This document shows, in pieces, positions 15,001 to 18,000 of a DNA stretch of 64,000 nt (within the stretch, counting starts at the first letter, position 1; each line of letters starts with the position of its first letter). This DNA comes from a virus (lineage: Duplodnaviria; Heunggongvirae; Uroviricota; Caudoviricetes). Made by a program: the position numbers. The stretch lies in IMG/VR virus record IMGVR_UViG_2703718822_000010. One strand, given 5' to 3'.

Positions 15001-18000
15001 TGACGCAAACACCATCAACAACGTAAGCCATGCTGTATTTGAAGTTATGGCGGCTACCAAGAACGGCTGGAGCCACCTCCCAGATTTTAATCCTTATGTA
15101 TTCGGATTCCCCAAGATGGCGAATGAACTCTTTATACAGTCTGGATGGCATAAAAACTCCGTGTATTTATGTTGTTAAGGATAACAACAGTGCATAGCGT
15201 TGTCAATTAATACAACATCAATGCTGAGTTGACGACAACACTTATCCGGGATTATATTCTTCGCACGGTCGAGTTGGCCGTCGGGATTGGAACCCCGGAT
15301 AGAGACCGCGACAAACACACGCCGCGAGCGTGTTTTTTATTGTCGTATGCACGCGCACATCTGAATTATGGTGGGGCGCATGGGGGAGCTGAAAAGCTCG
15401 CCGGTCGGTTTCCCGGTAGTTCCAACCCTGTGCGTCTCACCACCCGATGATTGGAACCTTACGGTGGTGATAGTTTAGAAACCACTAGAGGGCGTCATTA
15501 TGACAACTCAAATCTCTGTTGAAACCATCTCCCCGATTACCCATAACCAGATTCCTGTTATTACCACCGAGCTTTTGGCACAACTTTATGGCACCGAAAC
15601 TAATAACATCAAAGTGAACTATACACGCAATGCCGAGCGTTTTGTTTGTGGGAAACACTACTTCAAATTGGAAGGGGCTGGATTGCGGGAATTTAAGAAC
15701 AAGGTTACTCAAAGTAACTTAGTTGCACCGCGTACAAAGCACCTCATCCTCTGGACAGAACGCGGGGCAGCCCGTCACGCAAAAATGCTCGAAACTGATC
15801 AGGCATGGGAAGTGTTCGAAAAACTGGAAGACTGCTATTTCAGCCAGGGAAAAACAACACAAACCGAACAGCAGCCGCAGATTCAGCCACAATTCACAGC
15901 CGAGGAAATCATCCTCCTTTGCTACATGCAGCTCTGGATGGAAAAAGCCCAGAACATCAGCAAACACCTGTATCCCATTATGAAAGAGCTGAACTCCTCA
16001 TACACGAACAAGCTGTATGACATTGCATTTGAGACCATCTACATGGTGACGAAGAACAGAGATGCGTTACTGAGGGAGGCTGCACGGCTTGACCAGTCAA
16101 GTTTTGTAGTCAAACGGGCCATACCAATGCTGAAAAGCCTGCGGGCAAGACAATTCGAGTTTTAAGGCCAGATTTGACAAATCCGCATTAGCGGGGATAT
16201 ATTCCGCTCCATGGTGCTGAACACACCTTCGAAAGCGGAAACCGCGCCCGTCAGTCATGCGGATTTTTTATGTCCATTTTTCAGATATGGTCGGGTAGCG
16301 CGTATACCGAAAAACAGCCGCAAGGCTAAGGATGCGGGCCGAACTTTCGACGGTGTTCAAGTACCCGACCGCCCTGCTGAACACGGGGTGATCTGAACGA
16401 ATCGAAAGGACATAAAACTATGAGCACTCAACTTGTATTCCACAATGTTCAATTCCAGACCGTTCAACGAGATGGTCTACTGTGGTTGTCTGCCCCCCAA
16501 ATAGCCAGCGCGTTACAATATGCAGATCAAAGCTCGGTAACACGCATCTATGCCCGTCACGCAGATGAATTCACAAACGGTATGACAGCCTCGGTCAAAT
16601 TGACCGATCCTAAAGGGGACAAGCAAGAGACTCGCATCTTCTCATTACGCGGCGCTCACCTAATAGCGATGTTTGCTCGAACTCCAATAGCAAAAGAGTT
16701 TCGTCGCTGGGTATTGGATATTCTGGACCGTGAAGCTGAAAAAAGCGCTATACCGCCACAACCTCATATTCAGCCGCAATTCACAGCCGAGGAAATCATC
16801 CTCCTTTGCTACATGCAGCTCTGGATGGAAAAAGCCCAGGACATCAGCAAACACCTGTACCCTATAATGAAAGAGCTGAACTCCTCATACACGAACAAGC
16901 TGTATGACATTGCGTTTGAGACCATCTACATGGTGACGAAGAACAGAGACGCGCTACTGAGGGAGGTAACACGTCTCGACATGTCAAGTTCCGTTATCCA
17001 GCGGGCCATGCCAATGCTGAAAAGCCTGCGGGCAAGACAATTCGAGTTTTAAGGCCAGATTTGACAAATCCGCATTAACGGGGATATATTCCGCACCAAG
17101 GTGCTGAACACACCTATACAAGCGGAAGCCGCACCCGTCAGTCATGCGGATTTTTTATGTCCATTTTTCAGATATGGTCGGGTAGCGCGTATACCGAAAA
17201 ACAGCCGCAAGGCTAAGGATACGGGCCGTTCTTGTATGCGGTGTTCAAGTACCCGACCGCCCTGCTGAACACAGGGATTCTGAACAAAAAATACAAGGAC
17301 ATAAAACTATGAGCACTCAACTCGTATTCAAATCCCACGTTCTTGAAACGATCGAACACGACGGCAAACAGTGGTTCACTGCCGCGACTTTGGCTTCTGC
17401 ACTGGAGTATTCGCGCGGCGATAAAATCACCCAGATATACAACCGCAATTCGGATGAGTTTACTCCTTGTATGTCAATCAACCTCAAAATGAGGTTCAAC
17501 GGGATCAACAATAGCTTACGAGAGAAAGATGTGCGTATTTTCTCTCTACGCGGTGCCCACCTGGTAGCGATGTTCGCAACAACTCCAGTAGCCAAAGAGT
17601 TCCGTCGCTGGGTATTGGATATTCTGGACCGTGAAGCTGAAAAAAGCGCTATACCGCTACAACCTCATATTCAGCCGCAATTCACAGCAGAAGACATCAT
17701 CCTACTCTGCTACGTTCAACTCTGGATGGAAAAAGCACAACAACTCAGTAAGCAGCTATACCCCGTCATGAGAGAACTGAACTCTGATTACTACGGGAAA
17801 CTGTTTGATCTGGCCTACGAGACTCGTCATATAACCAACCGGACTCGCGACACATTGCTCCGCGAAGCAGCAAAACTTGATCCCGCCAACTATATGGTGC
17901 ATAGGGCCAGAAGCATGCTGGCGCAACTACGGGCAAGACAATTTGAATTCTGAAACTAAAGGAGCTTCGGCTCCTTTTTTGTTGGGAAAATCCAATGAGA

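Follow-up and report, generated by a model that had tools for sequence, protein, structure and literature searches.

A tandem array of three antirepressor-type genes in a Stx1 prophage, each probably silenced by its own C4-type antisense RNA

How would a prophage that carries three antirepressor-type genes in a row keep them silent, and would one lock serve all three? The question is raised by a 64-kb stretch of viral DNA (IMG/VR record IMGVR_UViG_2703718822_000010; 'the window' hereafter, at its full length). The window is a lambdoid prophage carrying stx1, the genes of Shiga toxin 1 (Stx1), and its closest deposited relative is Escherichia phage phiSTEC1589-Stx1c. The array lies in the nin region, between a minus-strand TumE toxin/antitoxin pair (14503-15151) and ninB (18008). 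An earlier note on this DNA had proposed that the genes are under RNA-structure control, and had asked whether the leader hairpins terminate or attenuate. RNA-based control is well founded; the attenuator part gives way to another reading. As judged from homology and covariation, the tandem array probably consists of three units of the phage P1 immI type, in each of which an antisense RNA would silence its own antirepressor gene. The system is a member of the known C4/immI-type class of antisense control (P1/P7 c4, Gifsy-1 isrK-anrP and P4 CI). Family matches, site layout, three-way covariation and recombinant structure were obtained directly and carry the argument.

Three antirepressor-type genes

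The three consecutive genes share a C-terminal domain and differ at the N-terminus, as had been noted; in Pfam terms, P22_AR_C stands behind ORF6N or Bro-N in plus-strand open reading frames (ORFs).

15500-16165 (+): gene 1, 221 amino acids; ORF6N (KilA-N-like) and P22_AR_C (Pfam)
16420-17052 (+): gene 2, 210 amino acids; Bro-N and P22_AR_C (Pfam)
17309-17953 (+): gene 3, 214 amino acids; Bro-N and P22_AR_C (Pfam)

All six domain matches exceed the curated Pfam cut-offs, and the PHROG families of genes 1, 2 and 3 all carry the label anti-repressor. It is these Pfam and PHROG family names that suggest an antirepressor role. A search of PDB sequences with the gene 3 protein found no relative, and phage P1 Ant1 showed no detectable similarity to the window proteins.

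A C4-type RNA in each leader

The whole window was searched against Rfam covariance models at gathering thresholds. Each of the three genes proved to be preceded by a predicted antisense RNA on the same strand, and in unit 1 (gene 1 with its leader) an isrK-family RNA precedes it.

15265-15338 (+): isrK-family RNA, unit 1 (RF01394, 54.9 bits; gathering 50)
15364-15447 (+): C4 antisense RNA, unit 1 (RF01695, 71 bits; gathering 45), full-length (model 1-87)
15368-15478 (+): 36-codon upstream ORF overlapping the C4 RNA, unit 1, ending 22 nucleotides (nt) before the gene 1 ATG
16289-16378 (+): sRNA-Xcc1-family (C4-type) antisense RNA, unit 2 (RF02221, 67.5 bits; gathering 53), full-length
17176-17266 (+): sRNA-Xcc1-family antisense RNA, unit 3 (RF02221, 68.6 bits; gathering 53), full-length

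The earlier note had correctly placed a leader before genes 2 and 3 and had overlooked that gene 1 has one of the same functional type (15229-15499). Both computational checks that it had proposed for the leaders, structure prediction and a covariance search, came out in favor of structured RNA: leaders 2 and 3 fold better than shuffled controls (z = −4.0 and −5.2), the isrK, C4 and sRNA-Xcc1 models find matches and the leaders are conserved in homologous arrays. The fold of the unit 1 C4 RNA has z = −5.0. The second inverted repeat described for leaders 2 and 3 (GGTCGGGTA at 16289 and 17176; TACCCGACC at 16362 and 17250) turned out to be the closing stem of an antisense RNA gene (sRNA-Xcc1 here, C4 in unit 1), and the first element contains target sites and a promoter; this is where the view of the leaders as primarily hairpin attenuators lacks support.

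By analogy with P1, the mature C4 RNA of unit 1 would extend from about 15370 to 15444. It would, on the same analogy, be cut from its precursor by RNase P; the sequence context is as in P1, where AAUUAU also directly precedes a 5′ GGUGGGGCG and the 3′ terminus also reads ...CCACC. A terminator scan placed an intrinsic terminator of unit 1 at 15317-15338, inside the isrK-family RNA. Units 2 and 3 have no upstream ORF (the reading is ATG GTC GGG TAG) and no ORF between the RNA and the gene.

The C4 model (RF01695) gave no match in units 2 and 3 at E ≤ 5, and at the same cut-off no Rfam family, isrK included, matched their 5′ elements. The c4-a1b1 model (RF03163) reached only 23.5 bits in unit 1 (15252-15301; gathering 46.7) and found no match in units 2 and 3, while the homologues L026 and L035 pass its threshold. 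Despite these sub-threshold or absent matches, the function of c4-a1b1, i.e. sites complementary to the antisense RNA, is still present in the units. No tRNA or tmRNA was found in the leaders. Elsewhere in the window GGTCGGGTA occurs at 56398 and TTTTATGTCC at 20177; these are chance or unrelated occurrences, not additional modules.

Pairing sites and their covariation

In all three units two segments of the antisense RNA, a′ and b′, have complements both upstream (a1 and b1) and downstream (a2 and b2). The complements are exact except for one G·U pair at b1 of unit 1. SD stands for the Shine-Dalgarno sequence.

15287-15293 (+): a1, unit 1; UUGGAAC, hairpin loop
15302-15308 (+): b1, unit 1; GAGACCG, pairing with one G·U
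15407-15412 (+): b′, unit 1; GGUUUC, hairpin-2 loop
15419-15425 (+): a′, unit 1; GUUCCAA, 3′ junction
15451-15457 (+): a2, unit 1; UUGGAAC
15478-15483 (+): b2, unit 1; GAAACC, 5 nt before the SD GAGGG (15489-15493)
16218-16224 (+): a1, unit 2; UGAACAC, hairpin loop
16229-16235 (+): b1, unit 2; UCGAAAG
16344-16350 (+): b′, unit 2; CUUUCGA, hairpin-2 loop
16353-16359 (+): a′, unit 2; GUGUUCA, junction
16378-16384 (+): a2, unit 2; UGAACAC, hairpin loop
16402-16408 (+): b2, unit 2; UCGAAAG, overlapping the SD AAGGA (16406-16410)
17105-17111 (+): a1, unit 3; UGAACAC
17116-17122 (+): b1, unit 3; AUACAAG
17231-17237 (+): b′, unit 3; CUUGUAU
17241-17247 (+): a′, unit 3; GUGUUCA
17266-17272 (+): a2, unit 3; UGAACAC
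17291-17297 (+): b2, unit 3; AUACAAG, overlapping the SD AAGGA

Predicted folds place a1 and a2 in 7-nt hairpin loops and leave b1 single-stranded; across the units a2 lies 35-42 nt before the ATG. Leader 2 (16166-16419) and leader 3 (17053-17308) are alike, as had been claimed, with 89.5% identity. They differ at 28 alignment columns, and the largest clusters of differences fall on b1 (4), b′ (∼7) and b2 (4). The three sites change in concert and keep their complementarity: b1 and b2 versus b′ read UCGAAAG/CUUUCGA in unit 2 and AUACAAG/CUUGUAU in unit 3. A pattern scan of IMG/VR recovered both window alleles repeatedly and found a third one in locus L009 (b′ CUUGCUG, b1 CAGCAAG, b2 CAGCAAG).

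The same relation holds among homologues. We fetched 80 viral loci with P22AR_C relatives and scanned 40 representatives with Rfam; in 34 of them the gene is closely preceded by a C4 or sRNA-Xcc1 RNA of its own strand, and many homologous loci carry two or three units. We then took 37 distinct modules next to P22AR_C homologues and looked for exact complements of at least 6 nt on both sides of the RNA. Every module had at least one such two-sided complement of its own, and 17 had both a and b. In the cross-module control 86% of 1280 RNA/flank pairings gave no such match, and 3% of the shuffled RNAs reached 6 nt. Among the modules there are at least ten alleles of b and several of a. An exact match to the hairpin-2-loop site was located downstream in 32 of the 37, with its end 9-16 nt from the ATG; in modules of the sRNA-Xcc1 type this site overlaps the SD, and in those of the C4 type it lies just 5′ of the SD. 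Covariation, together with the position of this site at the SD, is the strongest evidence that RNA-RNA pairing would be how the elements function.

In one sRNA-Xcc1 subtype (L055, L061, L063, L066 and relatives) a site complementary to the junction, GTCAACT, is located in codons 3-5 of the antirepressor-type gene, so that the two sites bracket the start codon.

Promoters and the first inverted repeat

A sigma-70-like promoter site opens each unit. In units 2 and 3 it is combined with the first inverted repeat, and a short complement of the SD region (anti-SD) follows.

15229-15258 (+): promoter-like site, unit 1; sigma-70-like, TTGACG-18-TATATT
16174-16203 (+): promoter-like site, unit 2; TTGACA-18-TATATT (11 of 12), inside the 5′ arm of the long hairpin
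17061-17090 (+): promoter-like site, unit 3; TTGACA-18-TATATT
16179-16269 (+): long nested hairpin AAATCCGCAT...ATGCGGATTT with T6, unit 2
17066-17162 (+): long hairpin, T6 (17151-17156) and anti-SD, unit 3
16266-16275 (+): anti-SD UUUUAUGUCC, unit 2; perfect complement of GGACAUAAAA at 16408-16417
17153-17162 (+): anti-SD, unit 3; perfect 10-nt complement of the SD region 17297-17306

In unit 1, 6 nt separate the end of the −10 hexamer from the isrK match, whose first base is 15265. Hexamers and spacing are kept in divergent homologues though the spacer sequences differ. The inverted repeats and the T-run were found where they had been described: AAATCCGCAT at 16179-16188 and 17066-17075, ATGCGGATTT at 16257-16266 and 17144-17153, then T6. 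The −35 and −10 hexamers flank the 5′ arm of the first repeat, so that an RNA begun at the unit's own promoter would lack this arm and be left with a weak local hairpin before the T-run. The 'three small hairpins' that this repeat was said to close require an RNA that begins at the internal promoter; the full-length fold has nested helices instead. The full hairpin with U6 (−34.9 kcal/mol, z = −3.8) could form in read-through RNA coming from the preceding gene.

In three sequence classes, different sequences preserve the pairing of the promoter spacer with the stretch that precedes the T-run. Alignment of the 5′ elements by MAFFT, followed by RNAalifold, misaligned the divergent subtypes and recovered two small local hairpins; the long-range helix was instead tested by duplex energies. 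These are −17 to −21 kcal/mol for a class's own segments versus mostly −4.5 to −15 kcal/mol for cross-class pairs. The first inverted repeat may, on such sequence evidence, be an insulating terminator with an embedded promoter.

The stability of this hairpin with its T6, and the z-scores of the leader folds, are what a plain attenuator or terminator, the possibility raised in the earlier note, would predict if its hairpins act alone. We regard that explanation as very unlikely: a conserved promoter lies within the 5′ arm, the second inverted repeat belongs to an Rfam RNA gene as its closing stem, and the covariation of the sites implies intermolecular or long-range pairing beyond local hairpins.

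The 10-nt anti-SD/SD complement of units 2 and 3 has its anti-SD half just after the T-run, so that the antisense RNA lies between its two halves. The complement covaries in the L045 type (TTTGTGTCC/GGACACAAA) and is absent from most sRNA-Xcc1 subtypes.

Proposed control and comparison with known systems

In the control that we propose, the sigma-70 promoter of each unit would transcribe the 5′ a1/b1 segment up to the T-run, the antisense RNA, a2/b2 and the gene. The antisense RNA, a member of the C4 family in unit 1 and of the sRNA-Xcc1 family in the other two, would measure ∼75-90 nt. Its second hairpin would display b′ in the loop, and a′ would lie unpaired in the junction that follows this hairpin on the 3′ side. 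With a′ paired to a2, and b′ paired to b2 on or next to the SD, ribosome binding would be blocked and the antirepressor kept off in the lysogen, both in cis and in trans. The C4-type RNA would be the repressor, and the upstream 5′ RNA that bears a1/b1 would act as its competitor. As the three units differ in their b alleles and unit 1 also has a separate a allele, each gene would have its own lock. Since units 2 and 3 have no upstream ORF, control there would be exerted directly on the SD of the antirepressor gene. Experiments on the homologous locus of Gifsy-1 and on P1/P7 support control of such a kind (PMC4825925, PMC12197685).

Comparison with P1 was made with its annotated record and its sequence. 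The record gives the order promoter P51b, a1, b1, C4 RNA, a2 (four bases further on), b2 (at the ribosome-binding site of icd), icd and ant1/2. In the sequence a T-run lies between b1 and the C4 RNA, b′ occupies the loop of hairpin 2 and a′ the unpaired junction on the 3′ side of that hairpin. The element order of P1/P7 immI (c4 - icd - ant1/2), which is headed by a constitutive promoter, is the same as in the window units, the P1 antisense RNA measures ∼77 nt, and P1 and P7 owe their specificity to short allele-specific sequences, as the window units would. In P1/P7 the leader of the transcript itself gives rise to the c4 antisense RNA, which pairs with a2/b2 and blocks downstream translation (PMC12197685). 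The window differs from P1/P7 immI in having three tandem units in a lambdoid Stx1 prophage. In contrast to P1, no icd-like ORF stands between RNA and gene in units 2 and 3, and the ORF of unit 1 overlaps the RNA; the RNAs of units 2 and 3 are of the sRNA-Xcc1 family, which escapes the C4 model; neither a C1-type operator nor a second promoter was seen; and the cargo is ORF6N or Bro-N with P22AR_C rather than the KilAC/ANT-domain protein Ant1.

The b1-c4 segment of phage P1 (L097, 48277-48320; GCGGACAACCGC...TTGCGGTATTTTTGTGTCC) is closer to the element of units 2 and 3 (GCGGAAACCGC...ATGCGGATTTTTTATGTCC) than the isrK-type element of unit 1 is.

Several points weigh against three independent immI-type units. 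The a2 sites of units 2 and 3 are 35 nt upstream of the ATG, away from the ribosome-binding site; in unit 1 b1 needs its G·U pair and b2 has just 6 nt. Units 2 and 3 have the a allele in common and are possibly not fully independent. RNAduplex energies did not separate own from cross pairs among the three units, because the segments are too short and their flanks GC-rich. The window proteins are unrelated to P1 Ant1, and their antirepressor activity is at the level of annotation. Transcription starts, processing and translational repression are likewise deduced. Finally, the authors of the Gifsy-1 study read the C4 region as a translated ORF and stressed activation by IsrK over C4-like repression (PMC4825925).

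In Gifsy-1 isrK-orf45-anrP is transcribed from the isrK promoter into a long RNA that is translationally silent; IsrK provided in trans switches anrP translation on, and the prophage is induced. A stable RNA, STnc1160, comes from the orf45 region, and the authors liken the locus to P4 seqA/CI/seqC (all PMC4825925). Unit 1 resembles this locus in that isrK and then C4 stand before an antirepressor-like gene and a short ORF covers the C4 RNA; its 36-codon ORF is the positional analogue of orf45. In contrast to Gifsy-1, a TumE toxin-antitoxin pair and no antQ-type gene lies upstream of unit 1, and units 2 and 3 are without isrK match or upstream ORF.

Activation as in Gifsy-1 could accordingly be the main mode of control, with a silent long transcript opened at the ribosome-binding site in trans by a short 5′ RNA released at the T-run (IsrK or its analogue in units 2 and 3) and the C4-like segment serving as a structural or upstream-ORF element. 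This is a serious possibility, though we doubt it. The experiments at the homologous locus (PMC4825925) speak for it, as do the isrK match of unit 1, the ORF at the place of orf45 and the anti-SD of units 2 and 3, which complements the SD perfectly and covaries in one other subtype. However, units 2 and 3 lack the upstream ORF, and initiation at the internal promoter would leave their transcripts with only a weak terminator; the anti-SD is missing in most sRNA-Xcc1 subtypes; and a pure cis switch has no need of three-site covariation that includes the loop and the junction of a conserved RNA which folds independently.

P4 immunity (seqA - CI RNA - seqC) also uses an antisense RNA that is obtained by processing of the leader and flanked by complementary sites, and the Rfam C4 and isrK models detect relatives of CI and seqA (PMC10111431). 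P4 immunity acts by premature transcription termination on replication genes, whereas in the window the 3′ site is on the SD of an antirepressor-type gene. Transcriptional immunity of the P4 type would have the C4-like RNA bind a1/b1 and a2/b2 on the nascent transcript and cause early termination at the T-run or by Rho, with no block to ribosomes. The analogy with seqA-CI-seqC is drawn in both PMC4825925 and PMC10111431; a T-run follows a1/b1 in each unit and in P1, and a small conserved hairpin stands directly before it. We nevertheless consider this explanation unlikely, given that b2, where found, is on or abuts the SD, as translational control predicts, and that the local hairpin before the T-run is weak.

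Recombination and copy number of the array

The array had been described as modular, recombining and variable in copy number, with direct repeats of ∼0.55 kb, and our comparisons bear this out. The repeat (15872-16419 versus 16759-17308) has 90.6% identity, and its copies are 887 bp apart. Genes 1 and 2 are similar in their C-terminal DNA, but 'near-identical', as it had been called, is generous at 91.5% identity; gene 3 has 68% with either. Phage phiSTEC1589-Stx1c and locus L016 correspond to the window without 15872-16758, i.e. with exactly one 887-bp unit fewer. In L020 unit 1 is followed by leader 2 and then by a chimeric gene with the gene 2 head joined to the gene 3 tail. The IMG/VR pattern scan also found leader-2 alleles before gene-3-type heads. 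That relatives have one 887-bp unit less or chimeric genes indicates that the array recombines.

Related DNA is present in 901 of 5426 complete E. coli genomes, at a median of two and a maximum of seven places per genome. Among the E. coli matches listed, the best carry two genes, or two ORF6N genes and one BRO gene, and none has the three-unit form of the window. The window array looks like a recombinant of two two-unit arrays. A recent duplication or an assembly artefact was considered and rejected, because the copies are ∼90% identical, their differences cluster at sites of function and other genomes contain both parental arrangements.

Two or three C4/sRNA-Xcc1 units were also seen within 3.6 kb in L043, L026, L047, L057, L077, L085, L066 and L054. 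Some of these units in viral contigs are spaced by ∼540-580 nt, so the genes between them must be truncated or very short. Mobile elements insert into these arrays: a group II intron (D1-D4 domains) adjoins an antirepressor homologue in L084 (1949-2235), and ALIL, an IS3-type frameshift pseudoknot, adjoins another in L054 (3143-3259).

The wider sRNA-Xcc1 family

The RNAs of units 2 and 3 belong to sRNA-Xcc1 (RF02221), an integron-associated Xanthomonas small RNA (sRNA) family, for which the Rfam 15 output lists no clan; C4 is placed in CL00128. Species-representative genomes were scanned with the conserved hairpin-1 core of sRNA-Xcc1, and at least 120 loci were found in many proteobacterial groups and beyond. 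Among the matches listed, 111 distinct copies were usable: 92% have both upstream sites in a form that fits their own loop and junction, versus 12% in the cross control, and 23% have both downstream sites, versus 2% in the control. An exact-pattern scan of genome contigs with the window's own hairpin-1 sequence gave no matches.

The family is named after its Xanthomonadales copies. Inspected by eye, these have covarying a1/b1 and no obvious a2/b2, unlike the window copies; because no a2/b2 is recognisable downstream, their target may lie elsewhere. The Xanthomonas/Xylella literature treats the family as trans-acting virulence sRNAs (PMC2996969, PMC12189769). Extended to the window, it would make the RNAs of this type trans-acting regulators of host or virulence genes that stand beside antirepressor genes by chance. 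This we hold to be highly improbable, since in 34 of the 40 representative loci the RNA is immediately upstream of homologous genes on their own strand and the variable loops match their own flanks.

Possible significance

Our searches of open-access text found no description of a tandem array with differing specificities, of C4-like logic in sRNA-Xcc1 RNAs or of a promoter embedded in a terminator hairpin. We tentatively suggest, as a set of ideas that is rather unlikely to hold in full, that the a/b alleles are orthogonal RNA locks that define RNA-level immunity groups among co-resident lambdoid/Stx prophages, that sRNA-Xcc1 is a C4-type immunity family and that the promoter-in-terminator element is an insulator. 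If so, the C4-type RNAs of a prophage would act on incoming or neighbouring phages by silencing those antirepressor genes that match, and its own three genes would be separately releasable. The whole sRNA-Xcc1 family would consist of C4-type immunity RNAs with a so far unannotated a1/b1 partner element. A promoter inside a terminator hairpin would form a compact insulator, which stops read-through from the preceding unit and passes the unit's own transcripts.

Antirepressors can induce prophages without SOS-dependent repressor cleavage. As the prophage carries stx1, release of the three genes could raise toxin and phage production. The allele series provides a testable code that relates each silencing RNA to its gene, and such a code could explain cross-talk or cross-immunity among the several lambdoid prophages typical of Shiga toxin-producing E. 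coli. For the RNAs annotated as sRNA-Xcc1 in many bacteria, the suggested reading is that of cis-linked C4-type regulators, not free-standing virulence sRNAs.

Neighbouring features

The gene order int, cI, cro, cII, O, P, array, ninB, rusA, Q, stx1 is common to the window and phiSTEC1589-Stx1c; the CI repressor of the window is encoded on the minus strand at 8594-9301. The stx1 genes (span 20399-21635) encode Stx1 A (20399-21355) and Stx1 B (21366-21635). At the end of the array, just 5′ of ninB, there is one further feature.

17958-17980 (+): hairpin with T-run, intrinsic-terminator-like

The Stx1 genes are downstream of Q, and an STnc100-family RNA (21718-21929, 160 bits) lies directly 3′ of stxB. 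On the other side of the array, divergent to unit 1, the minus strand encodes the TumE toxin (14864-15151) and its HVO_A0114/MarR-like partner (14503-14871). The minus strand also has a promoter-like site (15206-15178), and a small inverted repeat, GTTGT-N8-ACAAC (15199-15216), lies between the promoters of the TumE side and of unit 1.

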